NCBI RefSeq assembly: GCF_030384885.1 | Contig: NZ_CP128615.1 | DNA from: Escherichia coli | Lineage (GTDB): Bacteria; Pseudomonadota; Gammaproteobacteria; Enterobacterales; Enterobacteriaceae | Direction: 5' to 3' (one strand) | Length of the DNA: 64,000 nt | Shown here: piece after piece, positions 7,986 through 55,250 of the stretch | How the letters are laid out: the number at the start of each line of letters is the position of its first letter | How positions within the stretch are numbered: position 1 is the first letter of the stretch | Made by a program: the position numbers and the translations under genes | The notes under the pieces: model-generated | What the model saw: only the letters and a program-made list of their open reading frames with translations | Databases searched by the model: none | Told to the model about the DNA's origin: nothing

Positions 7986-8001
7986 GTTTCACCTCAGCGC
8001 C

Positions 8002-14342: not shown

Positions 14343-14357
14343 ATGATCTTGCGCCTC

Positions 14358-16121
14358 TTATTCTGTCTCTACGCTGTTTGCGGGTTGTAATGCGGTTCTA
14401 ATGCGGGCAAGCAGTGTTTCCTGACGCTCGCGGTAAAAGTCCATAAACTGGTTTAGTTGTTCAGGTAATGATGTTATGGCTTGCGATTGCAGATGTGCTT
14501 GTCTTGCATTCACATCAGGCCACTGCTGCGCATACCATTCATGGGGCATTTTTTGCCGCTTCTGGTTGTTGATTGTCCCTTCCAACAGTTGAAGGTTTGG
14601 CAGCTTGTTAGATGCCTCGATGAGTTCATCTAGCTGTTCAGCTGGGACACCAACTTTTGCAAGCTTGTTACGCGTAAACAAACCTTTGGGGTAAATGTGG
14701 TCCACATGAAAGTGTCGTGAAAAATCGAATCCTGGGAACAACAAAGTCAACAAGGCAAAGGTACGCGGATTACCATAATCCAACTGCGCTAGTTCACTAA
14801 TTTCCTCTGGGTCAAAGCGCAACGATTTACCACGCTGTTGCATGGTCGCTTCAATTTTCGCTAGCGGGAAACCCGTATCACCCGATTGTTTAATGTCTGA
14901 GCGAAGCATAGTAAGCAGGGTATCCAAACCACTTCCCCAGATGCCTGACGCTTTCAACAACGACCTAATGAGCCAGTTTCTGATGCATTCTCTATCGACC
15001 GCATATTCAACCCTAGAAAGGTAGCTTGCCGTTAACTTTCGGTGGTGCAGGTAATAGGCTAACGGGAGGATGGCACTTGTTGCTCTGAGGTTTTGTGCAT
15101 TAAAACCAAAACTTGCCAGCAACTGCATTGAGAGCAATAACGCATCACGAATTGGCGTCCAGTTCTTTTCGAGAATCGCCATATTTTCCTTGTTAAAGTT
15201 CTCAACCTTAAAGCCCACGCTACCGATGTCAGAGAGCATTAAGCCTGCTTTTAAAACGAGATCTTTTGATACGTTGAATCCATCACCAACACGGTTCATC
15301 TCATCCACTAAGGCATGAATTTCTTCACGGGCATCTAACGAGCTCCACTGCGCTACGGCTATTGAAAGTAGTAAGTCTGAGTAGGACAAAGTAGTGCCGC
15401 CGCTATTCATGCGGATAAAGATATTCAGAACACGTTCAAGGCTCTGATCACTTTCTTCGTAAAACGAAATCTTATCTTTGTCATGGATAGTTCGATACAA
15501 GTGACGAAGAGTTGAGCGAGCCTCTTTGCGTTGCTCCGAGCTCAACCTAGCATCATCAGCAACTTCATCGATAAGTGCATCTTCTTCCTCTTCCATGATC
15601 CGGCCTACACGGAACCAGTATTGTTCAGATGCATCCAAAGAGGCTTTATCGTCGGTTAGGAACTCAAAGTCATACATCGACCCAGTTTCTAAGTCGGGCT
15701 GGCTTAACAGATTTAAGTGAAGCCTGCGCACTGGGAAGGCGTCATCATTGCTCCACCATTTACCTGTCAGCTTCCACGCAAATGAGCCGCGTAGGCCGAT
15801 GTTCAAAGCGGTAATCCGCTGCTGTCCATCTAGGACGGCAATGAACTCACGCTCTGGTAACTGAGTGACATTTTCACAATGGTAGTTATCTCGCTCATGG
15901 TAATGCTGCATGAACTGATAAAACTGATAGCTATGCCGGTTCTCTGGTTTTATCTTCCAGAATAGAAAGGTCCCAAACGGGTAACCTTGCAACAGGCTAT
16001 CAAATAGACGACAGATCTGTTCTGGTCGCCATACAAACTCTCGCTGGATGGCCGGTAACAGGTATTCCTGCTCAGCAACCTTGTCGAGTAATGATCTTAT
16101 TGTTCCACCCGCTTGATACAT
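14358..16121 (-). CDS. DUF262/DUF1524 GmrSD-like (BrxU-like) putative type IV restriction enzyme embedded in the BREX operon
   Basis: 587 aa; N-terminal IQREFVW...LDGQQR (DUF262/ParB-like NTPase); C-terminal HVDHIYPK...LQLLEGTINNQK (His-Me/HNH-like DUF1524). Confidence 0.8.
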   Translation of the reverse strand: MYQAGGTIRSLLDKVAEQEYLLPAIQREFVWRPEQICRLFDSLLQGYPFGTFLFWKIKPENRHSYQFYQFMQHYHERDNYHCENVTQLPEREFIAVLDGQQRITALNIGLRGSFAWKLTGKWWSNDDAFPVRRLHLNLLSQPDLETGSMYDFEFLTDDKASLDASEQYWFRVGRIMEEEEDALIDEVADDARLSSEQRKEARSTLRHLYRTIHDKDKISFYEESDQSLERVLNIFIRMNSGGTTLSYSDLLLSIAVAQWSSLDAREEIHALVDEMNRVGDGFNVSKDLVLKAGLMLSDIGSVGFKVENFNKENMAILEKNWTPIRDALLLSMQLLASFGFNAQNLRATSAILPLAYYLHHRKLTASYLSRVEYAVDRECIRNWLIRSLLKASGIWGSGLDTLLTMLRSDIKQSGDTGFPLAKIEATMQQRGKSLRFDPEEISELAQLDYGNPRTFALLTLLFPGFDFSRHFHVDHIYPKGLFTRNKLAKVGVPAEQLDELIEASNKLPNLQLLEGTINNQKRQKMPHEWYAQQWPDVNARQAHLQSQAITSLPEQLNQFMDFYRERQETLLARIRTALQPANSVETE

Positions 16122-16137
16122 AGTTATCCGTTGCCTC

Positions 16138-19100: not shown

Positions 19101-19815
19101 AATTGTTTTCAACCTGTTCAACCCACGCTTTGGCAGACTCTAATGATTGCTCACTGGCATGAGCGAGTGCTTCTGAAAGTTCGTCTCGATAGAAGTCATA
19201 GGCGTCACGCTCCTTTTCCCAAGTTGATTGAGTCAACTCAGCAAATTTGTCCTTGAAAGACATGTATTGATTACGCTTATCAAGCTCGCGTTCTAAATGC
19301 GCAATGTGAGGAAAATCAGCGCAGTATCCTACACGCTCATTAAAGACTTTGAGGAAGACCTTAAGAATGGCATTTTCTCGGTCATCCGTATTGGCTCGTG
19401 AATCGATGTTAAAAAGAATAACATCAGTGTCTTTGGTAACAGCGTTTTGGATATCGGCCAACAGCATGGCATCGTTGATTTTGTCTTTAAAAAACTCAAA
19501 TGCTTGACGGCCTTGGCCATCCTTTTCGACAGACTTATTTTCGAGGAGGTAAGACAAAATTTTCAGGAAGTGAGACTTACCCGAACCAAAGAAGCCAGAG
19601 ATCCACACACCAATTTTTCCTGACATTGATGCGCCACTTTGCGTCACAGATGGAACGTAAGCCTCAAAGAAAGCGCGAAAATGTCGATCTAGCTCTCGGG
19701 TTACAACATACTCATCAAGTTCGACATACACACTGTCATTGTCTTTCTGTTCCGCTTTAACAACGCCGTTAATATCACGCGTCAACTTCTTGGAAAAAAT
19801 CTGTTCAATTTTCAT
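16138..19815 (-). CDS. brxC: BrxC/PglY large P-loop ATPase
   Basis: 1225 aa; GFFGSGKSHFLK Walker A, LLFLVDEVGQF Walker B; position after brxB. Confidence 0.9.
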   Translation of the reverse strand: MKIEQIFSKKLTRDINGVVKAEQKDNDSVYVELDEYVVTRELDRHFRAFFEAYVPSVTQSGASMSGKIGVWISGFFGSGKSHFLKILSYLLENKSVEKDGQGRQAFEFFKDKINDAMLLADIQNAVTKDTDVILFNIDSRANTDDRENAILKVFLKVFNERVGYCADFPHIAHLERELDKRNQYMSFKDKFAELTQSTWEKERDAYDFYRDELSEALAHASEQSLESAKAWVEQVENNFPLDIRNFCKWVNEYLDRTGDRNLLFLVDEVGQFIGKNTQMMLKLQTITEDLGTYCGGRAWVVVTSQADIDAAIGGMDKRDGEDFSKIQGRFSTRLQLSSSNTSEVIQKRLLSKTEEARTHLIDVFAEKGDILRNQLTFDKTTTASLKGYTDAPSFVDNYPFVPYHYTLVQKVFESIRTKGATGKHLAMGERSLLDAFQSAAKQMKDSGLDVLIPFYSFYAPIESFLEPAVKRTIDQACELDSLTEFDGKILKTLFLIRYVDVVKSTLDNLVTLSIDRIDADKIALRKQIEESLNRLERQLLIARNGDEFIFLTNEEKEIENEIRHTDVEMSEVSNKLSAIVFDGILKGNRAYRYPINKQDFAVSRFCNGHPKDGTTLEDLVIKVISPLDSHFENYSHDQACINHTLEADGCVLVKLGEHKRLWDDLTTFIKTDRFLKQNSGQRPEQEHLLREKQMENIEREKRLRTDFEALFAEADVYAIGTKLPKKSATPSAIVEEAYKYVIENTFAKLNMLKATPGEVLRELQAVLVADDIAQIGLDLQADECNPEATREVEQYVTLKVERNEPVYLRDIVAHFGKRPYGWPDNEILLLTARLGLAGKLSFSTQGTDLALKKAYEPFTSVRKRGEIRVHKIRQHDERQIKKAAGLVKEIFSKTFTGSGEKELYELVRDELLAWNEELKSFRTKSQTGHFPGKSQIDDGLALVAGILEQTSSFALITRFLENADALEEFAEDFEDLDDFYNSQFQTWQALAGALNEKFKANRPALEKDSEALKALTELERIYNMPSPYEQLRHINPLIEQVAKINSTLVEEKRTHALERVDLRIGRVKEALAEAHAPSELQNQALRPLQMCRQRIEATSSIPQIISEQTEAEGYEDEAYELLNGFIEDQRKKAEAEQRRRELEQQTREEEAAKAGKAAPAPEPASEPVQPQPVAKRTVTINSTDAMAKSVTTGFIESEAEVDAYLAALREQLIAAVKAGDRVRIK

Positions 19816-19833: not shown

Positions 19834-20427
19834 TTAATTTTTTTTACCGTCTTCAGGCACAAGCTTGAAGGCGCGATAGTAGTTTTTAGATTCGATCATG
19901 CCGAAAGGATGCAAATCCCTTCCGCTATATTCACCCGGATAGAAAAGCACTAATGGCGTGCTACCCATAACGTCTTGCAGAGCACTAAGTAACTCATGTC
20001 CTCGGATAAGAGGCCACGCACTGCCTAAGCCTGACAGCAACACAAACTCAAGTTCTGATGGCTTATATTTGTCCGCGATATACCTTGCCACTTTCTCTTG
20101 GCTCAGAGGCCCGGCTAGTGTTTTTCGAAGGCCATCAACACCGACTTGCAATTCACGCTGGCAAGCTCGGTCGAAAAGGCCTCGCTCCTCAAGCATATCT
20201 ATCAAGACTTCAAAAATATTGAGATGGACAAAGCGGTAACCACGCTTGTTGAGTTTTTCGTCAACGTGCTTAATGTGCTCTCGTACAAGCAGTTCATACT
20301 TGGCTGGATAGTCAAATACCCAAAATCCAATTTCATTGCCCAAGCCATCGTTTTTCAAAAACTTAGGGCTTTCAATTCGTTCCAGTATCAGATCAAGCCT
20401 GGTCTGAAGAGCCTTCATATTGTGCAC
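19834..20427 (-). CDS. brxB: BrxB (DUF1788-type)
   Basis: 197 aa; canonical size and position; 13-nt overlap with brxA. Confidence 0.8.
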   Translation of the reverse strand: MHNMKALQTRLDLILERIESPKFLKNDGLGNEIGFWVFDYPAKYELLVREHIKHVDEKLNKRGYRFVHLNIFEVLIDMLEERGLFDRACQRELQVGVDGLRKTLAGPLSQEKVARYIADKYKPSELEFVLLSGLGSAWPLIRGHELLSALQDVMGSTPLVLFYPGEYSGRDLHPFGMIESKNYYRAFKLVPEDGKKN

Positions 20428-21014
20428 TCCATTACCTCAATCAAATCTTCCCGGCCCAGACGAACTAACCAGTCTTTAACTTCTGGCATTAGGTAAACAG
20501 GTTGTATTTTCTTTGTCCTGCTATCACTCAGGTAGCCACTATCAACCAGTGCCTTAATTGCGTTGTTACCCATTTTTTTGACAGTTGAGTCAGAAAAACC
20601 GCCAAGCTCAGCATATGCCCGCACTCTCGTGTCATAAAACTCAGACCATGCATCAGCGGTTAAAGAGGGTTTATAGGTGCGACGAGCTTCGGCTAAGGTA
20701 AGTCGCATAAAATAAGCGACAACCGGAGAATGAATGAGTAATGACATCATCAGCATTTGGACATAGGCACGTTCACTCGCGGCTAAAAGATCAGTCATAA
20801 ACTCATCACCCAGGCCTTCAATACGCCAACGGATTGTTCTGGCATAACGAATAGCCGTCTGACCGGATTTTTTCTGAAGAACATTTTGCTCAACGATCAG
20901 CGACTTCCACTCATCTTCTGGAAGTTTTTTCAATAGCGATTCTGCGATTATTCTAGATTCAGTTATCAATAAACTGCCTCCGATAAGATCGCCTAAATAT
21001 TCTTTTATATTCAT
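20415..21014 (-). CDS. brxA: BrxA (DUF1819-type)
   Basis: 199 aa; canonical size and position as first core BREX gene. Confidence 0.75.
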   Translation of the reverse strand: MNIKEYLGDLIGGSLLITESRIIAESLLKKLPEDEWKSLIVEQNVLQKKSGQTAIRYARTIRWRIEGLGDEFMTDLLAASERAYVQMLMMSLLIHSPVVAYFMRLTLAEARRTYKPSLTADAWSEFYDTRVRAYAELGGFSDSTVKKMGNNAIKALVDSGYLSDSRTKKIQPVYLMPEVKDWLVRLGREDLIEVMECTI

Positions 21015-23174: not shown

Positions 23175-23486
23175 TTATTTAGGTAGCGGGCCTAATTGCA
23201 CCCCATCAGGATAATACTTCCAGCCATCGCGAATTTTGACATTTTCATCCCACGGAAGTTTGTATTCGCCATTGGCAAGATCGCGCACCCAGGTCAGGTA
23301 ATTCTCGCGTTCGCCTCCCGGTTTGCCGACATAGCCCCGGCAGCCAAGGTTGAAAATATTGTTTTCCAACGCCCAGTTTTCACGCGCTTTATCCACCAGG
23401 CGCGGGAACAGCTCTGCGGTAACAATTTCCCATGGGTTGCGGTGCCCCTGCTGAATGACGTTACCGTCATAATTGCAGACCGTACC
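23175..23486 (-). pseudogene. 3' remnant of an unidentified gene truncated by IS903
   Basis: Frame stays open from 23396 up to the IS903 boundary (…[38 protein letters not shown]…LGPLPK*). Confidence 0.5.
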
Positions 23487-24543
23487 GGCTTTGTTGAATA
23501 AATCGAACTTTTGCTGAGTTGAAGGATCAGATCACGCATCCTCCCGACAACACAGACCATTCCGTGGCAAAGCAAAAGTTCAGAATCACCAACTGGTCCA
23601 CCTACAACAAAGCTCTCATCAACCGTGGCTCCCTCACTTTCTGGCTGGATGATGGGGCGATTCAGGCCTGGTATGAGTCGGCAACGCCTTCATCACGGGG
23701 AAGGCCCCAGCGCTATTCTGACCTTGCCATCACGACTGTGCTGGTCATTAAACGCGTATTCAGGCTGACCCTGCGCGCTGCGCAGGGCTTTATTGATTCC
23801 ATTTTTACACTGATGAATGTTCCGTTGCGCTGCCCGGATTACAGCTGTGTCAGCAGGCGGGCAAAGTCGGTTAACGTCAGTTTCAAAACGTTCACCCGGG
23901 GTGAAATCGCGCATCTGGTGATTGATTCCACCGGGCTGAAGGTCTTTGGTGAAGGCGAGTGGAAAGTCAAAAAGCATGGCCAGGAACGCCGTCGTATATG
24001 GCGAAAGTTGCATCTGGCAGTTGACAGCAACACACATGAAATCATCTGTGCAGACCTGTCGCTGAACAATGTGACGGACTCAGAAGCCTTCCCGGGTCTT
24101 ATCCGGCAGACTCACAGAAAAATCAGGGCAGCATCGGCAGACGGCGCTTACGACACCCGGCTCTGTCACGATGAACTGCGGCGTAAGAAAATCAGCGCGC
24201 TTATCCCTCCCCGAAAAGGTGCGGGTTACTGGCCCGGTGAATATGCAGACCGTAACCGTGCAGTGGCTAATCAGCGAATGACCGGGAGTAATGCGCGGTG
24301 GAAATGGACAACAGATTACAACCGTCGCTCGATAGCGGAAACGGCGATGTACCGGGTAAAACAGCTGTTCGGGGGTTCACTGACGCTGCGTGACTACGAT
24401 GGTCAGGTTGCGGAGGCTATGGCCCTGGTACGAGCGCTGAACAAAATGACGAAAGCAGGTATGCCTGAAAGCGTGCGTATTGCCTGAAAACACAACCCGC
24501 TACGGGGGAGACTTACCCGAAATCTGATTTATTCAACAAAGCC
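23487..24543 (+). mobile_element. IS903-like element, complete (1057 bp)
   Basis: GGCTTTGTTGAATAAATC inverted repeats at both ends; IS5-family transposase; no 9-bp target duplication. Confidence 0.9.
23519..24487 (+). CDS. IS903/IS5-family DDE transposase (start codon uncertain)
   Basis: ...[30 protein letters not shown]... Confidence 0.9.
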
Positions 24544-35335: not shown

Positions 35336-35496
35336 GGCTTTGTTGAATAAATCAGATTTCGGGTAAGTCTCCCCCGTAGCGGGTTGTGTTTTCAGGCAAT
35401 ACGCACGCTTTCAGGCATACCTGCTTTCGTCATTTTGTTCAGCGCTCGTACCAGGGCCATAGCGGGGTCGTTTGCGGGAGGGGGCGGAATCCTACG

Positions 35497-39462: not shown

Positions 39463-40316
39463 GATTTCAGTTTATTACGGATTACCGTGGCTCTCTCTCA
39501 CGTTCACGCATATGTCGTTTGATGGGCGTAACAGATCGTGGTTTACGTGCATGGAAACGCCGTCCTCCATCACTGCGCCAGCGTCGTGATCTTATACTTC
39601 TAGCGCATATACGTGAGCAGCATCGGTTGTGTTTGGGGAGCTATGGTAGGCCGCGTATGACAGAAGAGTTGAAAGCGCTGGGCCTGCAGGTTGGGCAGCG
39701 TCGGGTTGGACGTTTGATGCGCCAGAATAACATTACAGTTGTTCGAACGCGTAAATTCAAACGGACAACGGATAGTCATCATACCTTCAACATTGCACCG
39801 AACCTATTAAAACAAGACTTTAGCGCAAGCGCACCCAACCAGAAATGGGCAGGCGATATCACTTATGTTTGGACCAGAGAAGGATGGGTCTATCTTGCTG
39901 TTATCCTTGACCTGTATTCCCGTCGCGTGATTGGCTGGGCAACAGGTGATCGATTAAAGCAGGATCTTGCATTAAGGGCACTGAATATGGCGTTGGCTTT
40001 ACGCAAACCACCACCGGGTTGTATTCAACACACAGACCGTGGGAGCCAATATTGCGCTCATGAATATCAAAAGCTACTGCTCAAACATCAATTGCTGCCG
40101 TCCATGAGCGGGAAAGGCAATTGTTTTGATAACTCCGCAGTAGAAAGCTTCTTTAAATCATTAAAGGCTGAGTTGATTTGGCGCAGACACTGGCAAACAA
40201 GGCGAGATATTGAGATTGCAATCTTCGAATATATAAATGGCTTTTATAATCCACGCCGAAGACATTCAACACTCGGCTGGAAATCGCCGGTGGCATTTGA
40301 GAAAAAAGCCGCTTAA
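39459..40316 (+). CDS. IS1133 OrfB (DDE integrase core)
   Basis: ...WAGDITYVWT...HTDRGSQYCAHEY...GNCFDNSAVESFF... Confidence 0.85.
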   Translation: MRFQFITDYRGSLSRSRICRLMGVTDRGLRAWKRRPPSLRQRRDLILLAHIREQHRLCLGSYGRPRMTEELKALGLQVGQRRVGRLMRQNNITVVRTRKFKRTTDSHHTFNIAPNLLKQDFSASAPNQKWAGDITYVWTREGWVYLAVILDLYSRRVIGWATGDRLKQDLALRALNMALALRKPPPGCIQHTDRGSQYCAHEYQKLLLKHQLLPSMSGKGNCFDNSAVESFFKSLKAELIWRRHWQTRRDIEIAIFEYINGFYNPRRRHSTLGWKSPVAFEKKAA

Positions 40317-40422
40317 AATGAGAGATAGACCGGAACACAACCGGTGCAAGTCCATAGCAACTCGTTTCTTTTCGCAGGTTGAGCCACCTCCGCGCTTCAT
40401 CAGAAAACTGAAGGAACCTCCA

Positions 40423-41226
40423 TTGAATCGAACTAATATTTTTTTTGGTGAATCGCATTCTGACTGGTTGCCTGTCAGAGGCGGAGAATCTGGTGATTTT
40501 GTTTTTCGACGTGGTGACGGGCATGCCTTCGCGAAAATCGCACCTGCTTCCCGCCGCGGTGAGCTCGCTGGAGAGCGTGACCGCCTCATTTGGCTCAAAG
40601 GTCGAGGTGTGGCTTGCCCCGAGGTGATCAACTGGCAGGAGGAACAGGAGGGTGCATGCTTGGTGATAACGGCAATTCCGGGAGTACCGGCGGCTGATCT
40701 GTCTGGAGCGGATTTGCTCAAAGCGTGGCCGTCAATGGGGCAGCAACTTGGCGCTGTTCACAGCCTATCGGTTGATCAATGTCCGTTTGAGCGCAGGCTG
40801 TCGCGAATGTTCGGACGCGCCGTTGATGTGGTGTCCCGCAATGCCGTCAATCCCGACTTCTTACCGGACGAGGACAAGAGTACGCCGCAGCTCGATCTTT
40901 TGGCTCGTGTCGAACGAGAGCTACCGGTGCGGCTCGACCAAGAGCGCACCGATATGGTTGTTTGCCATGGTGATCCCTGCATGCCGAACTTCATGGTGGA
41001 CCCTAAAACTCTTCAATGCACGGGTCTGATCGACCTTGGGCGGCTCGGAACAGCAGATCGCTATGCCGATTTGGCACTCATGATTGCTAACGCCGAAGAG
41101 AACTGGGCAGCGCCAGATGAAGCAGAGCGCGCCTTCGCTGTCCTATTCAATGTATTGGGGATCGAAGCCCCCGACCGCGAACGCCTTGCCTTCTATCTGC
41201 GATTGGACCCTCTGACTTGGGGTTGA
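40423..41226 (+). CDS. strA: aminoglycoside 3''-phosphotransferase APH(3'')-Ib
   Basis: TTG start giving (M)NRTNIFFGESHSDWLPVRGGESGDFVFRRGDGHAFAKIAP..., 267 aa. The listed ORF start at 40237 is an upstream extension. Confidence 0.95.
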   Translation: MNRTNIFFGESHSDWLPVRGGESGDFVFRRGDGHAFAKIAPASRRGELAGERDRLIWLKGRGVACPEVINWQEEQEGACLVITAIPGVPAADLSGADLLKAWPSMGQQLGAVHSLSVDQCPFERRLSRMFGRAVDVVSRNAVNPDFLPDEDKSTPQLDLLARVERELPVRLDQERTDMVVCHGDPCMPNFMVDPKTLQCTGLIDLGRLGTADRYADLALMIANAEENWAAPDEAERAFAVLFNVLGIEAPDRERLAFYLRLDPLTWG

Positions 41227-42062
41227 TGTTCATGCCGCCTGTTTTTCCTGCTCATTGGCACGTTTCGCAACCTGTTCTCATTGCGGACACCTTTTCCAGC
41301 CTCGTTTGGAAAGTTTCATTGCCAGACGGGACTCCTGCAATCGTCAAGGGATTGAAACCTATAGAAGACATTGCTGATGAACTGCGCGGGGCCGACTATC
41401 TGGTATGGCGCAATGGGAGGGGAGCAGTCCGGTTGCTCGGTCGTGAGAACAATCTGATGTTGCTCGAATATGCCGGGGAGCGAATGCTCTCTCACATCGT
41501 TGCCGAGCACGGCGACTACCAGGCGACCGAAATTGCAGCGGAACTAATGGCGAAGCTGTATGCCGCATCTGAGGAACCCCTGCCTTCTGCCCTTCTCCCG
41601 ATCCGGGATCGCTTTGCAGCTTTGTTTCAGCGGGCGCGCGATGATCAAAACGCAGGTTGTCAAACTGACTACGTCCACGCGGCGATTATAGCCGATCAAA
41701 TGATGAGCAATGCCTCGGAACTGCGTGGGCTACATGGCGATCTGCATCATGAAAACATCATGTTCTCCAGTCGCGGCTGGCTGGTGATAGATCCCGTCGG
41801 TCTGGTCGGTGAAGTGGGCTTTGGCGCCGCCAATATGTTCTACGATCCGGCTGACAGAGACGACCTTTGTCTCGATCCTAGACGCATTGCACAGATGGCG
41901 GACGCATTCTCTCGTGCGCTGGACGTCGATCCGCGTCGCCTGCTCGACCAGGCGTACGCTTATGGGTGCCTTTCCGCAGCTTGGAACGCGGATGGAGAAG
42001 AGGAGCAACGCGATCTAGCTATCGCGGCCGCGATCAAGCAGGTGCGACAGACGTCATACTAG
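41226..42062 (+). CDS. strB: aminoglycoside 6-phosphotransferase APH(6)-Id
   Basis: MFMPPVFPAHWHVSQPVLIADTFSSLVWKV..., 278 aa; overlaps the strA stop. Confidence 0.95.
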   Translation: MFMPPVFPAHWHVSQPVLIADTFSSLVWKVSLPDGTPAIVKGLKPIEDIADELRGADYLVWRNGRGAVRLLGRENNLMLLEYAGERMLSHIVAEHGDYQATEIAAELMAKLYAASEEPLPSALLPIRDRFAALFQRARDDQNAGCQTDYVHAAIIADQMMSNASELRGLHGDLHHENIMFSSRGWLVIDPVGLVGEVGFGAANMFYDPADRDDLCLDPRRIAQMADAFSRALDVDPRRLLDQAYAYGCLSAAWNADGEEEQRDLAIAAAIKQVRQTSY

Positions 42063-42168
42063 ATATCAAGCGACTTCTCCTATCCCCTGGGAACACATCA
42101 ATCTTACCGGAGAATATCGTTGGCCAAAGCCTTAGCGTAGGATTTCGCCCTCTCCCGCAAACGACCCC

Positions 42169-43070
42169 ATAGCCTCCGCAACCTGACCATCGTAGTCACG
42201 CAGCGTCAGTGAACCCCCGAACAGCTGTTTTACCCGGTACATCGCCGTTTCCGCTATCGAGCGACGGTTGTAATCTGTTGTCCATTTCCACCGCGCATTA
42301 CTCCCGGTCATTCGCTGATTAGCCACTGCACGGTTACGGTCTGCATATTCACCGGGCCAGTAACCCGCACCTTTTCGGGGAGGGATAAGCGCGCTGATTT
42401 TCTTACGCCGCAGTTCATCGTGACAGAGCCGGGTGTCGTAAGCGCCGTCTGCCGATGCTGCCCTGATTTTTCTGTGAGTCTGCCGGATAAGACCCGGGAA
42501 GGCTTCTGAGTCCGTCACATTGTTCAGCGACAGGTCTGCACAGATGATTTCATGTGTGTTGCTGTCAACTGCCAGATGCAACTTTCGCCATATACGACGG
42601 CGTTCCTGGCCATGCTTTTTGACTTTCCACTCGCCTTCACCAAAGACCTTCAGCCCGGTGGAATCAATCACCAGATGCGCGATTTCACCCCGGGTGAACG
42701 TTTTGAAACTGACGTTAACCGACTTTGCCCGCCTGCTGACACAGCTGTAATCCGGGCAGCGTAGCGGAACGTTCATCAGAGAAAAAATGGAATCAATAAA
42801 GCCCTGCGCAGCGCGCAGGGTCAGCCTGAATACGCGTTTAATGACCAGCACAGTCGTGATGGCAAGGTCAGAATAGCGCTGAGGTCTGCCTCGTGAAGAA
42901 GGTGTTGCTGACTCATACCAGGCCTGAATAGCTTCATCATCCAGCCAGAAAGTTATGGAGCCACGGTTGATGAGGGCTTTATTGTAGGTGGGCCAGTTGG
43001 TTATTTTGAACTTTTGCTTTGCCACGGAACGGTCTGCGTTGTCGGGAAGATGCGTGATCTGATCCTTCAA
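42169..43070 (-). pseudogene. IS903 transposase gene disrupted by Tn5393 (last ~22 codons displaced to 35392-35463)
   Basis: ORF identical in type to 44181..45149 until ...DGQVAEAM, then runs into the Tn5393 inverted repeat. Confidence 0.85.
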
Positions 43071-43406
43071 CTCAGCAAAAGTTCGATTTATTCAACAAAG
43101 CCCATTCAGTCCTCAATTTGTGCATTTTTTAAACGAAAAAAGGGTGTCTAATACGGTGAAATCATAGTATTACCAAAGTAATAAATAAAAAGTTATTTAA
43201 ATCAGTAATTTAGATTTGATTTGTAATACCTGGGTAATACCGCAGCATGGCTAAATTTTGTTTTTTTTCTTTTAAATCAGTGCGATAGCGTGATTTATCA
43301 CGCTGCGTTAGGTGTATAGCAGGTTAAGGGATAAAAAATCATCTTTTTTTGGTAGGGCGATCTCCGTAGGTTAAGGGGCATTTGGCTAAAAAGCGTCCTA
43401 TTCTTT

Positions 43407-43430
43407 GATGGTCATGCTTGCATGACCATC
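43407..43430. repeat. perfect 24-bp palindrome GATGGTCATGC-TT-GCATGACCATC
   Basis: 11-bp perfect arms immediately upstream of the 11-bp repeat clusters. Confidence 0.8.
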
Positions 43431-43440
43431 TGAGCAACCA

Positions 43441-43592
43441 AAAACTACAGATAAACTACAGATAAACTACAAAAAACGTTTTGCCTTAGTGTTGTAAGAC
43501 TACAAATAGACTACAATAAAACTACAAATAAACTACAAAAAACGTGACAGACTACAAATAGACTACAATAAAACTACAGATAAACTACAAAA
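43441..43592 (+). repeat. eleven 11-bp-phased direct repeats (A/G)ACTACA(A/G)AT(A), in clusters of 3+4+4; centromere/operator-like
   Basis: AAACTACAGAT AAACTACAGAT AAACTACAAAA ... AGACTACAAAT AGACTACAATA AAACTACAAAT AAACTACAAAA ... (repeated). Confidence 0.8.
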
Positions 43593-43597
43593 CTCGA

Positions 43598-43626
43598 TTG
43601 ACCCCTTCTTACGAGTGTTGTAGAGT
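43598..43626 (+). promoter_or_regulatory. sigma70-like promoter TTGACC-17-TAGAGT
   Basis: Directly follows the last repeat cluster, 25 nt before the GGAGGGGG RBS of the small ORF. Confidence 0.5.
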
Positions 43627-43650
43627 CATTTTCATACAACGGAGGGGGTT

Positions 43651-43830
43651 ATGAATAAACCAGCAGATCTGAAACCCCGCAACTTATCGGCTGCTGTCAG
43701 ATTGCGCCTAAATGAAATCGAGAACTGGCTGGACAGAGGGCTAACGCGGCATGAAATTGCTGAAATCCTCGACAGCGAATACAGCTTTTCGGTAACAGCC
43801 AAAGGGCTTGAGATGGATGGCACTGTATAG
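43651..43830 (+). CDS. small (59 aa) putative DNA-binding protein (StbA/ParR-like role suspected)
   Basis: Strong RBS; MNKPADLKPRNLSAAVRLRLNEIENWLDRGLTRHEIAEILD... (HTH-like). Not in the ORF track (<60 aa). Confidence 0.5.
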   Translation: MNKPADLKPRNLSAAVRLRLNEIENWLDRGLTRHEIAEILDSEYSFSVTAKGLEMDGTV

Positions 43831-44041
43831 AACGCGGCAAAACCGAAAAAATGTATTGCACAATACGCATGATAAGAGTAGCGCGAAGGGTGCAGCGGAA
43901 AGTGTATTGCACAATACACAACCGTCTGAGCCTGAAGTGCAGGAAAGTAAAAAAGCAGAGAGTCCCGGCATTATTGATAAAGAATTCTTCAAGAAAATCG
44001 GTGAGAATTTCGACCCTAAGAAGTTCAACAAAAAATTCTGA
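43817..44041 (+). CDS. small Lys-rich ORF overlapping the previous one (or its frameshifted C-terminal half)
   Basis: Ends 8 nt before the next ATG, whose GAGGTG RBS overlaps this ORF's stop. Contains two copies of GTATTG-CA-CAATAC. Confidence 0.35.
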   Translation: MALYRTRQNRKNVLHNTHDKSSAKGAAESVLHNTQPSEPEVQESKKAESPGIIDKEFFKKIGENFDPKKFNKKF

Positions 44042-44049
44042 GGTGATTT

Positions 44050-44124
44050 ATGAAAGTAGCGGTAATTAATTACAGTGGCAGTGTTCGTAAAACCTTAATT
44101 TCATCTTACCTGTTAGCCCCGCGC
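44050..44124 (+). pseudogene. first 25 codons of a ParA/StbB-like P-loop ATPase, cut by IS903
   Basis: MKVAVINYSGSVRKTLISSYLLAPR (deviant Walker-A-like position), then the IS903 inverted repeat. Confidence 0.45.
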
Positions 44125-45181
44125 GGCTTTGTTGAATAAATCAGATTTCGGGTAAGTCTCCCCCGTAGCGGGTTGTGTTTTCAGGCAATACGCACGCTTT
44201 CAGGCATACCTGCTTTCGTCATTTTGTTCAGCGCTCGTACCAGGGCCATAGCCTCTGCAACCTGACCATCGTAGTCACGCAGTGTCAGTGAACCTCCGAA
44301 CAGCTGTTTTACCCGGTACATCGCCGTTTCCGCTATCGAGCGACGGTTGTAATCTGTTGTCCATTTCCACCGCGCATTACTCCCGGTCAGCCGCTGATTC
44401 GCAACAGCACGGTTACGGTCTGCATATTCACCGGGCCAGTAACCCGCGCCTTTTCGGGGCGGGATAAGCGCGCTGATTTTCTTACGCCGCAGTTCATCGT
44501 GACAGAGTTGGGTGTCGTAAGCGCCGTCTGCCGATGCTGCCCTGATTTTTCTGTGAGTCTGCCGGATAAGACCCGGGAAGGCTTCTGAGTCCGTCACATT
44601 GTTCAGCGACAGGTTTGCACAGATGATTTCATGTGTGTTGCTGTCAACTGCCAGATGCAACTTTCGCCATATACGACGGCGTTCCTGGCCATGCTTTTTG
44701 ACTTTCCATTCGCCTTCACCAAAGACCTTCAGCCCGGTGGAATCAATCACCAGATGCGCGATTTCACCCCGGGTGAACGTTTTGAAACTGACATTAACCG
44801 ACTTTGCGCGCTTGCTGACACTGGTGTAATCCGGGCAGCGCAACGGAACATTCATCAGTGTAAAAATGGAATCAATAAAACCCTGTGCAGCCCGCAGGGT
44901 CAACCTGAACACGCGTTTAATGACCAGAACGGTGGTGATGGCGAGATCAGAATAGCGCTGAGGTCTTCCCCGTGATGAAGGCGTTGCCGACTCATACCAG
45001 GCCTGAATAGCTTCATCATCCAGCCAGAAAGTTATGGAGCCACGGTTGATGAGGGCTTTATTGTAGGTGGGCCAGTTGGTTATTTTGAACTTTTGCTTTG
45101 CCACGGAATGGTCTGCGTTGTCGGGAAGATGCGTGATCTGATCCTTCAACTCAGCAAAAGTTCGATTTATTCAACAAAGCC
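44125..45181 (-). mobile_element. IS903-like element, complete (1057 bp)
   Basis: Both inverted repeats present; same orientation as the split copy; no target duplication. Confidence 0.9.
44181..45149 (-). CDS. IS903/IS5-family transposase
   Basis: 322-aa ORF, near-identical to 23519..24487. Confidence 0.9.
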   Translation of the reverse strand: MKDQITHLPDNADHSVAKQKFKITNWPTYNKALINRGSITFWLDDEAIQAWYESATPSSRGRPQRYSDLAITTVLVIKRVFRLTLRAAQGFIDSIFTLMNVPLRCPDYTSVSKRAKSVNVSFKTFTRGEIAHLVIDSTGLKVFGEGEWKVKKHGQERRRIWRKLHLAVDSNTHEIICANLSLNNVTDSEAFPGLIRQTHRKIRAASADGAYDTQLCHDELRRKKISALIPPRKGAGYWPGEYADRNRAVANQRLTGSNARWKWTTDYNRRSIAETAMYRVKQLFGGSLTLRDYDGQVAEAMALVRALNKMTKAGMPESVRIA

Positions 45182-45672: not shown

Positions 45673-46246
45673 TGGGAATCGGCCCACCTTGCCGGGCGCC
45701 GGTGCCGTGTGGAAATCCGCCCACCTTGCCGCGCGCCGGTGCCGTGTGGGAATCCGCCCACCTTGCCGCGCGCCGGTGCCGTGTGGGAATCCGCCCACCT
45801 TGCCGGGCGCCGGTGCTGTGTGGAAATCCGCCCACCTTACCGGGCGCCGGTGCTGTGTGGAAATCCGCCCATCTTGCCGGGCGCCGGTGCCGTGTGGGAA
45901 TCCGCCCACCTTACCGGGCGCCGGTGCCGTGTGGGAATCCGCCCACCTTACCGGGCGCCGGTGCCGTGTGGGAATCCGCCCACCTTACCGGGCGCCGGTG
46001 CTGTGTGGAAATCCGCCCACCTTGCCGCGCGCCGGTGCCGTGTGGGAATCCGCCCACCTTGCCGCGCGCCGGTGCCGTGTGGGAATCCGCCCACCTTGCC
46101 GGGCGCCGGTGCTGTGTGGAAATCCGCCCACCTTACCGGGCGCCGGTGCTGTGTGGAAATCCGCCCATCTTGCCGGGCGCCGGTGCCGTGTGGGAATCCG
46201 CCCACCTTACCGGGCGCCGGTGCTGTGTGGAAATCCGCCCATCTTC
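45673..46246 (+). repeat. 15 full + 1 partial tandem 37-bp iterons TGG(G/A)AATCCGCCCACCTT(G/A)CCG(C/G)GCGCCGGTGC(C/T)GTG
   Basis: Units start every 37 bp from 45673 to 46228. Units 2-6 are repeated as units 10-14 (296-bp higher-order duplication). Confidence 0.9.
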
Positions 46247-51060: not shown

Positions 51061-51140
51061 TGGCGATTTCACCTTGAAATTCTCAGCCTAAACTGCCTAA
51101 TTACAATAAGTTAGATGTGAAATCGCCATGGCGAAATTAT
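51061..51140 (-). promoter_or_regulatory. P1-type parS centromere (box A ATTTCAC / box B TCGCCA flanking an IHF-like core)
   Basis: Reverse complement reads TCGCCATGGCGATTTCACATCTAACTTA...GAATTTCAAGGTGAAATCGCCA, very close to P1 parS as I recall it; directly downstream of parB. Confidence 0.8.
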
Positions 51141-52114
51141 TGACTCAAATTTCTGTCAAGGACCTCGTTGATAGCCTTGTCCAGTTCATCCTGAATCACT
51201 TTTGACATACGGCTAAACTCATAAGTCAGCGTACGCCCTTTCACACGCTTACGCGCGAACTTGTCCTTTTCTTCAAAAGACCAGAGTGGGGAAACCACTG
51301 ACTTTTCCTTGGGAGATGGATCTATCAATGCCTGAGATGCCTGAGAAATCAGCTTCAGTATACTGGCTTTCTGTTCGTCTTCTGGTCGCTCGCCTTCACT
51401 CAAAATTGCATCGAGCTGAGCTGATACAGACTGAATGAGTTCTTCAGGCGTTAATCCCTTTTCACTGAGTTTTTCATTAACTTCTAAAAGAAGTTTATAG
51501 TCACTAAACGATAGCTCCGACTGAACCGGGAACAGAGAAATCAAGTCTTGCGGTACGGCCGCCGCCTGCAGCGCCCTGGTAACTTTAGCTTGAGATAACC
51601 CCTCCAGTTCAGCAATTTCCTTTTGATTAAATCCGGACTCTTTAAGAGCGATCAATCTCAGGCCAATCTCCCGAAGATTATGTTCTTTAGCTGTCTGGAT
51701 ATCTTTAGCCAGTTGGCGAGCTTCATCAGCTGATAAATGCTCTTCGGTAACCATTACATCAAGGCCTGTACGGACAAAAATTGCTGAGGCTCGCCGTCTT
51801 GAACCATCCAGTATCTCAATCCTTTCACTTTGCTTAATACCAATACAGGGAAAGAACTGCTGAAACTTAATCGTCTGGATAATGGATTTCAGGGATTCCC
51901 TGGTCAGTGCAAGTTGATCTCTTCCGTTGTTTTCCTGGTTTACGAAGGTCTTACTTTCAACTTCAGATGCAGGCACCCGAACAAACCTGAACGTTACCTT
52001 CCTGCCGGTTTTTAAGGTAAATACCTGGCTTCTACCGGTGTCCGTCATTTCCGCAATTGACGCCTGGGTATTTAACTGTCTGCCGATGGTTTTTCTTTTC
52101 TCATTCGACATCAC
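51137..52114 (-). CDS. parB: ParB (type Ia, P1/F-like centromere-binding protein)
   Basis: 325 aa; ParB-box-like ILDGSRRR; HTH QKEIAELEGLSQAKVTRAL; overlaps the parA stop. Confidence 0.85.
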   Translation of the reverse strand: MMSNEKRKTIGRQLNTQASIAEMTDTGRSQVFTLKTGRKVTFRFVRVPASEVESKTFVNQENNGRDQLALTRESLKSIIQTIKFQQFFPCIGIKQSERIEILDGSRRRASAIFVRTGLDVMVTEEHLSADEARQLAKDIQTAKEHNLREIGLRLIALKESGFNQKEIAELEGLSQAKVTRALQAAAVPQDLISLFPVQSELSFSDYKLLLEVNEKLSEKGLTPEELIQSVSAQLDAILSEGERPEDEQKASILKLISQASQALIDPSPKEKSVVSPLWSFEEKDKFARKRVKGRTLTYEFSRMSKVIQDELDKAINEVLDRNLSQ

Positions 52115-53316
52115 ATACCTCCGTTAGTACGAATGAACTCGATGCGATCAAAGACTGCCTTCGCAAAGTCTTCCGCTGCTGATTTTGCGCTTTTTAGTGC
52201 CTCTGTACTTCCATCATAGGTTGCTGGATTTGCTGAAATAACTGTGTCAAAAGTCTCCCCACAACGTTCGAAACCATCCAGTCTTGGCAGAACCATGTCT
52301 AGCATATCGGCACCGAAAACCTCTTTGGCCTGACTATGGCAAATTTTGTGATCAGACTTGTTCAGGATCTTGGACATGAAGCCGACATTACCGATGAGAT
52401 TGCAGGTGTGCCCATCCATTTCGATGGAATCTATGAGGGCAGGGAGGCTGGCCACAAACTTCAGGGAAGAATGAAAATCAACCGTCGCCGGTGGAAGAGG
52501 GGTCAACATCAGGTCTGCCGCCCCAATGCAGTTTTTCAGGAACGCATCAAGGTGAGGACCACTATCAAGGAAAATAAAGTCGTAGTCATGCTGGAGCTTG
52601 TCGATAATGTTCTCTTTAAGCACCGCATGAATATTTTTCCCTGGCAGATGTTCTTCACACAATCCCTTCCAGCCTTCAGCAAGGAATGCATCGTCAATGG
52701 AAGCGGGGATTACATCAACACCAGGGATAATAGACGGTACTATAAAATCGGAAAGTAATTCTTCACGAGACACGTTCTGGAGCATGGCCTGAGCAGCCGT
52801 ATTTTCAACCAAGCCCACTGAATTCTCATGGCTCAGGAACATTGTCAGAGATGCCTGCGGATCGAAATCGATGGCCAGAATACGCAGGTCTTCGAACAGA
52901 AGCTGAGGATGAGCTCGAAAAGCATGTGATAATGAAGCGGTAGAAACTGTCTTGGAACCACCACCTTTAAGATTACATACAAAAATCGTAAAGGCTTTAT
53001 CGAAGCGATCCCTGTACTTCGGTACTTTACGATGGTTATACAGATCGATGACATTCTGAATCGTCATCGCGTATTTCATCGTATTACCAGAAGGTTTCTT
53101 TTTAAAAATGTAGCCACCGGCTTCCATTTCGGACACAGCATACTCAACACTGCCTTTACTGAGCTTAGGCAGCTTATACAGAGCGGCTTTGCTGTATTCC
53201 TGATAGAACTCGGTAAGCTTCAATTCCTCTTTTTGCTGTCGGATACTTTCGCTCAAAGATGTCAGAAGCTTACCTGCACGTGTAGCGACTTTCCGTAACT
53301 GCTCAATATTGTCCAT
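52111..53316 (-). CDS. parA: ParA (type Ia Walker ATPase with N-terminal HTH extension)
   Basis: 401 aa; deviant Walker A CNLKGGGSKTVST; size typical of P1 ParA / F SopA. Confidence 0.9.
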   Translation of the reverse strand: MDNIEQLRKVATRAGKLLTSLSESIRQQKEELKLTEFYQEYSKAALYKLPKLSKGSVEYAVSEMEAGGYIFKKKPSGNTMKYAMTIQNVIDLYNHRKVPKYRDRFDKAFTIFVCNLKGGGSKTVSTASLSHAFRAHPQLLFEDLRILAIDFDPQASLTMFLSHENSVGLVENTAAQAMLQNVSREELLSDFIVPSIIPGVDVIPASIDDAFLAEGWKGLCEEHLPGKNIHAVLKENIIDKLQHDYDFIFLDSGPHLDAFLKNCIGAADLMLTPLPPATVDFHSSLKFVASLPALIDSIEMDGHTCNLIGNVGFMSKILNKSDHKICHSQAKEVFGADMLDMVLPRLDGFERCGETFDTVISANPATYDGSTEALKSAKSAAEDFAKAVFDRIEFIRTNGGM

Positions 53317-53325
53317 TTATCACCT

Positions 53326-53363
53326 CATGACGTTTTTTGTCATTTTGAACAAAAAGTGTCATG
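53326..53363. promoter_or_regulatory. imperfect 38-bp palindrome upstream of parA (candidate par operator)
   Basis: CATGACGTTTTTTGTCATTTTGAACAAAAAGTGTCATG. Confidence 0.5.
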
Positions 53364-53593
53364 TTGCAAGAAAAAAATCATATTGTTTTGATTTCGCTCT
53401 CAACAGAAGGGGGATGAAGCTCGACGGGCGTGCTACTAAATCACACTGCAGCAACACGCAGACGCACTTTTGACCATCAACAGCAACTCATACAAAAGGG
53501 CTTTGAGAAAGGTATTCAACTTGCAAGACAGGAGAGTCATTCAGAAGGATTCTGATTTTAGTTACGACCAGTGCAATGCTGAGCCTTATGTAT

Positions 53594-53648
53594 CAGCGCT
53601 CGCCGCAGCCATGTAACCGAGCGTAGCGAGCGAACTGGCGAGGAAGCG
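53594..53648 (-). other. ColE1 n'-type primosome-assembly-site-like element (ssi/pas)
   Basis: Reverse complement CGCTTCCTCGCCAGTTCGCTCGCTACGCTCGGTTACATGGCTGCGGCGAGCGCTG resembles pBR322 CGCTTCCTCGCTCACTGACTCGCTGCGCTCGGTCGTTCGGCTGCGGCGAGCGG (from memory). Confidence 0.45.
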
Positions 53649-53710
53649 AAGAGGAACCGTTCCGGCAGATAGCTCTTACGCTCAGCACAAGAAGAGTTTT
53701 CCATCCTCTG

Positions 53711-54120
53711 TGGGAAACAGGTCAACTTTAATGGACGCTCCGGACTATGGGAAACAGGTCAACTTCGCGGACGGCCCGGACTATGGGAAACAGGTCAACT
53801 TCACGGGCGGCCGGGAGTGTGGGGAACAGGTCAACTTCGCGGACGGCCCGGATTATGGGAAACAGGTCAACTTCGCGGGCGGCCGGGACTGTGGGAAACA
53901 GGTCAACTTTGCAGACGGCCCGGACTGTGGGAAACAGGTCAACTTCGCGGGCGGCCGGGAGTGTGGGGAACAGGTCAACTTCGCGGACGGCCCGGACTAA
54001 GGGAAACAGGTCAGCTTCTCGGACGGCCCGGACTATGGGAAACAGGTCAACTTCTCGGACGGTCGGGAGTGTGGGAAACAGGTCAAGTTAGGCAAGCACT
54101 ATGGGAAACACAGCAAGTTC
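53711..54120 (+). repeat. 11 + 1 degenerate iterons TATGGGAAACAGGTCAACTT at 36-bp spacing (copy-control array downstream of rep)
   Basis: TGGG starts at 53711, 53748, 53784 and then every 36 bp to 54072, plus a degenerate unit at 54102. GC-rich spacers alternate between two versions (72-bp super-period). Confidence 0.9.
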
Positions 54121-54176
54121 AGTATCCCCCCATATGTCAGCAACAAACTAAGGGGGGAGGAAATAAAAATTACAGA

Positions 54177-54899
54177 CTATTGTTTTTTATCAAGAAAATT
54201 AAACAGCAAGCGACCATCTTCTTCAGTGGTATATGTTACCTTTAATGGCGTCTTCTCATTAATTTTCTTCAGAGCAGGTTCCAGGAAGGTACGCTTCATT
54301 TCAGCAATATTGTTTTTCTGCGAGGCAGGGAGCATAAACCTTTCACATAACCAGTCATGTGTGGTGATCCAGACACCAGTGCTCCGGAACTGACACAGGC
54401 TTTCATAAAGCCGGATGACACGAACACTATTAAGCTGGCCACAGTCATAGAGAGAATAGGTAGTGAACTGGGAGGTTAAGCCGACCAGGAATGGCATGAC
54501 CTTGTAGTTAAATTCAATCTGCCAGGAACCCCGGCCTCGCTTCATTCCTGCTTCAGCCAGCCACGGACGTTTAACTTCTTCAAACTCACCTTCTTTTGGA
54601 TAAAAGGTAACCGTTGATTCGCCCAGAGCATTTACCCCAGCCTTCACATCACGACTGGCGACAGACGTAGCGACATTGAAGTATTTGACGTAATCGGAAA
54701 CGCTGATTTTGAAGAGCGGCAATACGTCAGAGTCATCTTCCTGGCTGTCATTAAAATAGGCCTGCATGAGGCATAACCACAGCACACGTTTTGCCTGAAG
54801 AGGCAGGTAATATGCAGCTTCGGTCAATTCGTTAGATTGCTTTATACTGGCGCGTTTTTTAAACGTTTTAGTAGCTGGCAAGAGTGCTTGAGTATCCAT
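54177..54899 (-). CDS. Rep_3/RepE-like iteron-binding replication initiator
   Basis: MDTQALLPATKTFKKRASIKQSNELTEAAYYLPLQAKRVLWLCL...RLYESLCQFRSTG... aligns with F RepE. The upstream ATG at 55043 lies inside an ori iteron and past DnaA boxes, so 54899 is preferred. Confidence 0.85.
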   Translation of the reverse strand: MDTQALLPATKTFKKRASIKQSNELTEAAYYLPLQAKRVLWLCLMQAYFNDSQEDDSDVLPLFKISVSDYVKYFNVATSVASRDVKAGVNALGESTVTFYPKEGEFEEVKRPWLAEAGMKRGRGSWQIEFNYKVMPFLVGLTSQFTTYSLYDCGQLNSVRVIRLYESLCQFRSTGVWITTHDWLCERFMLPASQKNNIAEMKRTFLEPALKKINEKTPLKVTYTTEEDGRLLFNFLDKKQ

Positions 54900-54972
54900 T
54901 TCAATGCCTATGGGTAAATTTTTACCCACCCATAATGACAGTGAAAACAGAAATTGCAAGCTATCGCGATAC

Positions 54973-55250
54973 TTATCCACCGGAAAAATCTGCACTTTAT
55001 CCACAAGTGGATAATTGAGAACTGAACTTGACCTCTTTCCCATAGCTTGTTGATGCGTATCCCATAGCTTGTTGACACAAAACCCACTGATACGTGATTA
55101 ATTTCCCATATTATGTTTACCAGTTGCCCATACAGGCCCCCTCTCAGGCCGCACTGTACGCGGCTTTCAGGCTCCCTAAAAGATGTAAAATAAAGAAAAA
55201 GAATAAAAAAGTACTTTATAAAAATATGCCCGTGGATAAGTGGATAACCC
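54973..55250. promoter_or_regulatory. oriV region: DnaA boxes, iterons, AT-rich stretch
   Basis: TTATCCACC (54973), perfect TTATCCACA (54997-55005), inverted GTGGATAAT (55007), five iterons, AT-rich 55175-55225, and GTGGATAAGTGGATAA (two boxes, about 55231-55246). Confidence 0.75.
55023..55132 (-). repeat. five origin iterons at exact 22-bp spacing (inverted relative to the 36-bp array)
   Basis: CCCA(T/C)(A/T) cores at 55039, 55061, 55083, 55105 and 55127. The first unit, AACTTGACCTCTTTCCCATA, matches the reverse complement of the array iteron at 17 of 20 positions. Confidence 0.8.

Follow-up and report, generated by a model that had tools for sequence, protein, structure and literature searches.

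A very probable IncN oriT-stbA relic held between IS903 copies of an IncR-type resistance plasmid

The segment studied here lies between two copies of the insertion sequence IS903 in a 64-kb stretch of an Escherichia coli plasmid (hereafter the window) and had been described, from the letters alone, as an orphan centromere/stability module. It is very probably a captured fragment of an IncN conjugative plasmid of the R46/pKM101 family, beginning with the traK start codon and ending with the 25th codon of stbB. A truncated IS903 lies to its left and a complete one to its right, within the resistance region of a plasmid of IncR type that has ParAB and Rep of its own, and it retains cis-acting DNA only. 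The IncN fragment is already known and widely distributed and is not a new partition system: what had been regarded as an uncharacterised module is the long-known IncN traK-stbA intergenic region followed by stbA, for which hundreds of plasmids carry an annotation. As had been proposed, the IS903 copies enclose an orphaned module, with a frameshifted stbA and no partner genes in the window.

The inter-IS903 segment covers 43103-44124 (1022 bp). The original prediction had rightly placed it between IS903 copies but had begun it at 43102 (1023 bp), and base 43102 is the terminal base of the left IS903 inverted repeat. The left junction coincides with the ATG of traK, a relaxosome accessory gene of which the start codon is the only remnant (CAT at 43103-43105, minus strand, recognised from where traK starts in R46, pLAO27 and pA1718-KPC). 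Since the junction falls exactly at this ATG, the whole traK-stbA intergenic region has been kept (43103-43650, plus strand); it comprises the origin of transfer (oriT) and the stb control region, and was aligned to R46 19994-20505 and compared by identity with R46 and with loci L009 and L005. The intact homologous operons for which a search had been advised were found, for example in R46 and in the IncN plasmid pLAO27, where traI-traJ-traK lie on one strand and stbA-stbB-stbC on the other, separated by ~510-570 bp of intergenic DNA. By tblastn (with R46 queries for TraI, TraJ and TraK), none of traI, traJ, traK, stbC and ardK was detected in the 64-kb window, where no cognate relaxase, accessory or coupling protein was found; the partner-gene searches covered this one stretch of the plasmid.

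The first ~300 bp of the segment are an IncN oriT, which had previously been overlooked. Positions 43281-43337 are identical at 55 of 57 bases to the TraI substrate oriT57 of pKM101, which joins a 35-mer before nic to a 22-mer after it (oligonucleotides oriT57 and F-oriT35 are given in PMC9868005, Table S1). The nic site, GGTGT/ATAGC at 43315/43316 on the plus strand, was placed by alignment from the boundary between the two oligonucleotide parts. The TraI recognition hairpin, AGCGTGAT-TT-ATCACGCT (43287-43304, plus strand), matches the hairpin part of pKM101 F-oriT35 and folds at -7.5 kcal/mol as single-stranded DNA (ssDNA); one of the two differences from oriT57 makes the hairpin fully paired. 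The pKM101/pCU1 TraI hairpin and the nic sequence which characterise a MOBF IncN-type oriT are both present. On the 5' side of nic, the motifs GTATTACCAAAGTAATA and TAATACCTGGGTAATAC (43167-43240) form an inverted repeat conserved in all the IncN-type oriTs examined, and GTAATAC motifs were also found in R46, IncN2 and IncN3 loci. GTATTACCAAAGTAATA and TAATACCTGGGTAATAC are candidate sites for the relaxosome accessory protein TraK. The oriT of the window is apparently complete. The transferred strand is the plus strand, of which 43316 onward would be the first part to enter a recipient; as the DNA 3' of nic leaves first, the palindrome, repeats and stbA described below form the leading end, in agreement with the location of stb operons stated by Guynet et al. 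(PMC3098194). In the native setting, TraK and the MOBF relaxase TraI would assemble at the hairpin and nick the plus strand at GGTGT/ATAGC, and transfer would proceed 5' to 3' so that palindrome, repeats and stbA reach the recipient first.

An inverted repeat of 11+2+11 nucleotides, GATGGTCATGC-TT-GCATGACCATC, is located at 43407-43430, its core starting 97 nt 3' of nic. It had been reported as a perfect 24-bp palindrome; the arms (43407-43417 and 43420-43430) are indeed perfectly complementary over 11 nt, but the TT centre is not palindromic. The core CATGCTTGCATG does not vary among 12 loci representing four backbone types and starts 96-97 nt after nic in each, and the outer arms differ yet stay complementary (GATGGT/ACCATC, GGTATT/AATACC, ACTTT/AAAGT, CCTTT/AAAGG). 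The loci carrying the palindrome include R46 (L003), L005-L009, L015, L016 and L019-L021. On the transferred strand the palindrome folds as ssDNA at -9.6 kcal/mol (z = -4.1), and an analogous inverted repeat is found in R388 ~93 nt after its nic. The palindrome would form a hairpin on the incoming single strand, and a conserved hairpin-like element 97 nt after nic is a by-product of this analysis for IncN biology generally.

The stbA gene of the window is a pseudogene. Alignment to CP024857 revealed, at 43651-44041 on the plus strand, a 128-codon gene interrupted by a 4-bp insertion, namely a tandem duplication GATG-GATG (GATGGATG, 43812-43819, plus strand) with respect to the intact 387-nt stbA; it is the single difference between the window and CP024857 in 541 bp. 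The suspicion that the two small open reading frames (ORFs), 43651-43830 (59 aa) and the overlapping 43808-44041, are one frameshifted gene of ~130 aa was correct, the 128-codon stbA being restored once the 4-bp duplication is removed. As sequenced, the product consists of residues 1-55 followed by four out-of-frame residues, and ends at the stop codon 43828-43830. The repaired StbA scored 204 bits against the NCBIfam model NF041290 StbA_2 (cut-off 100) and the 59-aa product 64.8 bits, under the cut-off; the window has no intact stbA. The duplication at 43812-43819 is carried by no PLSDB plasmid and by no complete E. coli genome; either this plasmid alone has it, or the assembly is in error there. 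Other decayed stbA alleles are present in the databases, with the frameshifted products P0099, P0111 and P0116.

In the AlphaFold (AF2) model of StbA, built with 15 homologues, helices are confidently predicted for residues 12-28, 33-43 and 50-74 and residues 75-103 are disordered; the predicted local distance difference test (pLDDT) exceeds 90 for residues 11-60. The frameshift falls after residue 55, within the predicted third helix of the helix-turn-helix (HTH), and removes the invariant residues L57, Y58, R59, R61 and R64. The name StbA is also used for an unrelated ParM-type protein of R1/NR1, which belongs to a different family. In R388 StbA the third helix is the recognition helix (bioRxiv StbA structure paper). 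On the basis of this model, truncated StbA is not expected to yield a DNA-binding product; as stbA is broken inside the predicted recognition helix, the module cannot act here as a self-contained stability system. With hhalign, the N-terminal HTH proved homologous to R388 StbA(1-75) (E = 1e-4, residues 8-62), and R388 StbA (7pc1) was among the best structural relatives of the model, in line with the HTH-like character ascribed to the 59-aa ORF. The comparison with ParR and ParG found no support: the domain is modelled as a helical HTH and not as a ribbon-helix-helix (RHH). A Pfam-A scan of StbA returned only sub-threshold noise (Clr5), and the precomputed family PF28167 is attached to all the StbA homologues. 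A single-sequence phmmer search of the PDB gave only a low-complexity match to the ribosomal protein bS20 and did not find 7pc1.

Eleven 11-bp-phased ACTACA(A/G)A repeats occupy 43444-43594 on the plus strand, in the 3+4+4 clusters that had been noticed; motif scan and covariation designate them as a putative StbA-binding array equivalent to stbDR/stbS of R388. The repeats start at 43444/55/66, 43499/510/521/532 and 43551/562/573/584. Neighbouring copies of a cluster are 11 bp apart, whereas the step from cluster 1 to cluster 2 is 33 bp and that from cluster 2 to cluster 3 is 19 bp; two of the eleven copies are ACTACAATA. ACTACARAW was observed 11 times in the window for 1.2 expected, 9 of the 11 occurrences being inside the array. 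The stbA promoter, TTGACC-17-TAGAGT (43598-43626, plus strand), matches the sigma-70 consensus at 9/12 positions and is the sole sigma-70-like match in the segment, which confirms the good promoter proposed before. The final direct repeat ends 5 nt ahead of the -35 box, and TGTTGTAG (43616-43623), a partial copy in inverted orientation, overlaps the -10 box; this promoter-repeat layout is conserved in the class A relatives defined below. The segment thus contains the clustered direct repeats of ~9 bp, with an 11-bp period around the stbA promoter, that are typical of stb systems, and the attribution of the repeats to an StbA-type system was well founded. Their placement at the promoter would fit autorepression by analogy with R388.

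The repeat motif tracks the class of the StbA N-terminal domain independently of the backbone (four classes; IncN1, IncN2, IncN3 and a small plasmid). Class A domains (window, pLAO27, pA1718-KPC and two IncN3-like plasmids) go with ACTAC(A/T), class B domains (R46 and IncN2-type plasmids) with TACA(T/A)CA, of which R46 has 13 copies, class C domains (an IncN3 Proteus plasmid and an unrelated 8-kb mobilisable plasmid) with (A/G)GACA, and the R388 class with TTGCATCAT. This covariation across backbones lends indirect support to the binding of StbA to the repeats, and class A StbA probably binds the ACTACA array. In the comparison of the window with R46, DNA identity is 76-79% on the nic side and above 90% in the 3' half of stbA, but only ~40% across the repeats and promoter, and the 5' half of stbA aligns poorly (roughly 30% amino-acid identity in the N-terminal domain). 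As the divergence of the repeat/promoter region and stbA 5' half lies between conserved flanks, array and domain have been exchanged as one cassette; such a swap as a unit between backbones bears on IncN biology generally. A scan of genome contigs gave only 7 loci, all of repeat/domain classes already observed. IncN1 backbones carry class A or B and IncN3 backbones class A' or C (L003, L009, L021/L022, L024 and L025, compared with window 43444-43815), and the StbA proteins P0107 and P0112 are recombinants in which a class B domain is joined to a class A-type tail.

The layout of R46/pKM101 is the same as that of the window: traK start, GTAATAC motifs, TraI hairpin, nic, palindrome at 96-97 nt, 11-bp array, promoter, stbA and stbB, and DNA identity exceeds 90% both in the part that encodes the StbA C-terminal half and at the beginning of stbB. 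Coupland et al. reportedly described, in 1987, 13 direct 11-bp repeats in the R46 oriT. The two differ in the specificity allele, which is ACTACA with a class A domain in the window and TACATCA with a class B domain in R46, and in that the window has lost traK, most of stbB and stbC and has a frameshifted stbA; the IncN plasmid pLAO27 carries an intact version of the stbA/repeat allele of the window. StbA of the IncW plasmid R388 has an N-terminal HTH domain homologous to that of the window, and the R388 9-bp motifs, with an 11-bp period, are likewise clustered around the stbA promoter beside oriT on the leading side (PMC3098194). The R388 repeats are TTGCATCAT in two sets of five, whereas those of the window are ACTACA in 3+4+4, and R388 StbA is devoid of the VLHNT repeats, as R388 is of the dyad, both described below. 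The Stb functions have been demonstrated for R388 only.

Downstream of stbA, the first 25 codons of stbB, which encodes a Walker-type ATPase, are present at 44050-44124 (plus strand). They match residues 1-25 of the NCBIfam model NF041292 StbB, in agreement with the ParA/StbB-like ATPase cut by IS903 after 25 codons that had been recognised. The remnant shares 24 of 25 residues (96%, tblastn) with R46 StbB, the sole difference being G13R in Walker A (codon 13, 44086-44088; GSVRKT instead of GSVGKT). G13R is common to other relic copies, including L010 with a longer stbB fragment, and is not found in intact operons; its occurrence in the relic with more of stbB indicates that the change predates the IS903 cut. 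The stbB and stbC genes that follow stbA in an stb system are therefore reduced here to 25 stbB codons, with no stbC. In the native setting, StbA would bind the 11-bp-phased repeats through its N-terminal HTH domain, and this binding would repress its own promoter, position the plasmid for inheritance and restrain conjugation, a restraint that StbB would counteract; all these activities were demonstrated for the R388 homologue (PMC3098194; bioRxiv StbA structure paper). In the window, with stbA inactive, stbB limited to 25 codons and no relaxosome gene, only cis-acting DNA would be left, that is, the oriT and the StbA-binding array. Any remaining activity would be exerted in cis, either mobilisation by an IncN helper or titration of StbA: a co-resident IncN plasmid could mobilise the window plasmid in trans through the relic oriT, and the array could act as a binding or titration site for StbA from a co-resident class A IncN helper. 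Where sister plasmids have kept stbA intact, the cassette might in principle serve as an StbA-only stabiliser, a role indistinguishable from hitch-hiking.

Two dyads of the form GTATTG-CA-CAATAC had been noticed in the overlapping ORF, and both are there: dyad 1, TGTATTGCACAATACG (43852-43867), encodes N-V-L-H-N-T in the intact frame and dyad 2, TGTATTGCACAATACA (43903-43918), encodes S-V-L-H-N-T. The sequence GTATTGCACAATAC is identical in 17 of 17 full VLHNT copies from six plasmids, including StbAs only 35% identical to that of the window, and the third base of the codon before VLHNT is T in all but one of the 17. Between the R46 and IncN2 alleles, synonymous differences affect 33 of 69 conserved codons outside the dyads and 0 of 10 inside; the dyad 16-mer is invariant, synonymous positions included, in genes in which 48-64% of the other conserved codons differ. 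In IncN3-type backbones the dyad is TGGATTGCACAATCCA (G-L-H-N-P), with a symmetric double change from TGTATTG..CAATACA to TGGATTG..CAATCCA. The backbone-matched 16-mer recurs just upstream of an SprT-like leading-region gene, in R46 (30004), a Proteus plasmid (34364 and 34392) and pKSB1_9J.3 (7594), the R46 copy being the dyad 2 16-mer; an additional copy follows the ORF after stbC. The dyad arm TGTATTGCA resembles the arm (G/C)TATTGACA of R388 ArdK sites (arm GTATTGACA in PMC9723621), and the half-site also resembles GTATTGAC at the -35 of the CUP-type promoters of R46, whose IncN3 counterparts are GGATTGA; IncN3 plasmids show one and the same T-to-G switch in all three site classes (stbA dyads, SprT-like upstream site, CUP-like -35 arms). 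VLHNT repeats are absent from the StbA homologues of R388 and of the small mobilisable plasmid, which are without that regulon, and no match to the dyad above chance was found in R388. A full-text literature search for the 14-mer dyad found no paper.

The synonymous invariance, the symmetric IncN3 change, the recurrence at SprT-like and CUP-like sites and the absence where the regulon is lacking argue for a constraint on the DNA and not on the peptide. We therefore propose tentatively, with slightly more doubt than confidence, that a plasmid regulator, most likely ArdK, could use the dyads as operators placed within the coding sequence of the disordered linker of StbA, and that the VLHNT/GLHNP repeats could exist because the DNA must carry the site. 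The known ArdK operators differ from them in being direct repeats at the -35 box, whereas the stbA dyads are inverted repeats, two or three of them within the coding sequence, and the window has no ardK. In the window the dyads would be unoccupied relics; the operator hypothesis concerns IncN plasmids generally, for which these operator-like dyads within stbA are a further by-product. Two other candidates were rejected: a hairpin model as the main explanation, with ssDNA folds of only -1.5 and -4.4 kcal/mol, and StbA as the dyad binder, the same dyad occurring with class A and class B domains. The copy number of VLHNT/dyad units ranges from 1 to 4, and dyads were located at 20733, 20784, 22547 and 30004 in R46 (L003), at 1172-1283, 34364 and 34392 in L022, and at 7594, 8990, 9038 and 9071 in L024.

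The relic is widespread. In PLSDB, 1875 plasmids match the segment, and the matched region is annotated 'stbA: plasmid stabilization protein StbA'. With a junction query made of the segment and 400 bp of each IS903, counted at coverage of at least 80%, at least 597 records contain both IS903 junctions with 99.6-99.7% identity over 1.8 kb; they are mostly from Klebsiella, and most of the records opened were typed IncR. The ΔIS903B-stbA-IS903B arrangement has been described in IncR plasmids (PMC11792461), and a review mentions an R46-family oriT in some IncR plasmids (PMC12310702). In these relics (pC275-2, CP024857; IncR and IncF resistance plasmids) both junctions are identical to those of the window, but stbA is the intact 387-nt gene, whereas the window has its private 4-bp duplication.

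The right-hand IS903-family element is complete (44125-45181, 1057 bp, minus strand), with both 18-bp inverted repeats, and is annotated IS903B or IS5 family in matching plasmids. The left-hand copy (42167-43102, minus strand) corresponds, in blastn against the right copy, to element positions 122-1057, with 95.7% identity over 936 bp; its first 121 bp are gone, including the outer inverted repeat, so that its sole remaining repeat is the one touching the segment. The transposase ORFs of both copies are on the minus strand (42132-43070 for the left one), and the same orientation that had been reported is thereby verified. The composite-transposon-like layout is only superficial: there are no two usable outer ends, and no 9-bp target duplication was found around either IS903 (the flanks of the right copy are GCCCCGCGC and GTCTGTGTT). 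That the two copies form an active composite transposon moving an oriT-stbA cargo is hence very improbable, in spite of their orientation and of an identical layout across several replicon types (IncR, IncFII and others, for example L001, L011 and pC275-2); besides the lost outer end and the missing duplication, the copies are just 95.7% identical, and recombination of the surrounding resistance region explains the spread equally well. Still further from credible, and the least probable reading of all, is a partition centromere with its adaptor of the ParR/parC or ParG (RHH) type. Direct repeats spaced by a helical turn and followed by the gene of a small DNA-binding protein and that of a Walker-type ATPase do recall type Ib/II par loci, but the AF2 domain is of a helical HTH type with the high pLDDT given above, the NCBIfam calls are StbA_2 and StbB, and the locus adjoins oriT as do the stb operons of R388 and R46.

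Whether the captured IncN fragment still does anything has two other possible answers. The cassette might be a working StbA-only stabiliser, a type without NTPase as in R388, the frameshift being a sequencing error or very recent. In its favour, R388 is stable with StbA and the repeats alone and can do without StbB (PMC3098194), hundreds of plasmids retain the IS903-bounded cassette with a stbA that is intact and 100% identical, and the duplication is unique to this window. We nonetheless hold this to be improbable: as sequenced, translation ends after 59 codons inside the predicted third HTH helix, the plasmid already has ParAB, hitch-hiking in a successful resistance region also explains the retention, and decayed stbA alleles such as those cited above are many. 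A reading of the segment as wholly inert junk, with oriT and repeats without effect even beside an IncN plasmid, is unlikely too, although it deserves more weight than the other alternatives; all the trans-acting partners are absent, stbA is a pseudogene, stbB is truncated with a change in Walker A, and relics bounded by insertion sequences are common in resistance regions. On the other hand, the oriT has kept its full extent between the traK ATG and stbA, its TraI substrate is identical at 55 of 57 bases to one nicked in vitro, oriT is as a general principle the only cis element needed for mobilisation (PMC4853378), and MOB-suite, as reported through PLSDB, types most of the sampled IncR plasmids with the relic as 'mobilizable'. 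Three points weigh against the captured IncN fragment as it is presented here, with a dead stbA and cis-acting DNA. The duplication could be an assembly error, in which case stbA would be intact as in all the other copies; mobilisation of an IncR plasmid from the relic oriT by an IncN helper is undocumented in the literature searched; and the link between class A StbA and ACTACA is drawn from covariation and from analogy with R388.

For the window itself, the captured IncN fragment amounts to one more decayed copy of a widespread element, whose sole private feature is the frameshift that kills stbA. Its wider interest lies in the fact that a 'non-conjugative' IncR resistance plasmid with an apparently complete IncN oriT could be mobilised by a co-resident IncN plasmid, and that the repeat array could interfere with the StbA of the helper.

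The type Ia ParA/ParB and Rep3 initiator of the plasmid itself are encoded at 51137-55043; these genes, for the ParB, the ParA (with an N-terminal HTH) and the initiator of the Rep3 family, are situated 7-10 kb to the right. To the left of the segment, strA/strB-type aminoglycoside phosphotransferase genes (40237-42062), annotated aph(3'')-Ib and aph(6)-Id in matching plasmids, abut the truncated IS903. A third complete IS903-family copy, in inverted orientation and 95.9% identical, is found at 23486-24543, together with two end fragments at 35336-35463 and 3131-3192; one of these fragments has 128 bp and corresponds with 100% identity to the beginning of the right copy, a part absent from the left copy. 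A BREX-type defence cluster occupies 5910-19815 on the minus strand (BrxL Lon-like protease, PglZ, an Eco57I/MmeI-type methyltransferase, a GmrSD-like protein and BrxC). Finally, a G+C-rich unit of 37 bp is repeated 15.5 times in tandem (93% matches) at 45673-46245, ~490 bp beyond the right IS903 end, and generates long spurious ORFs in several frames.

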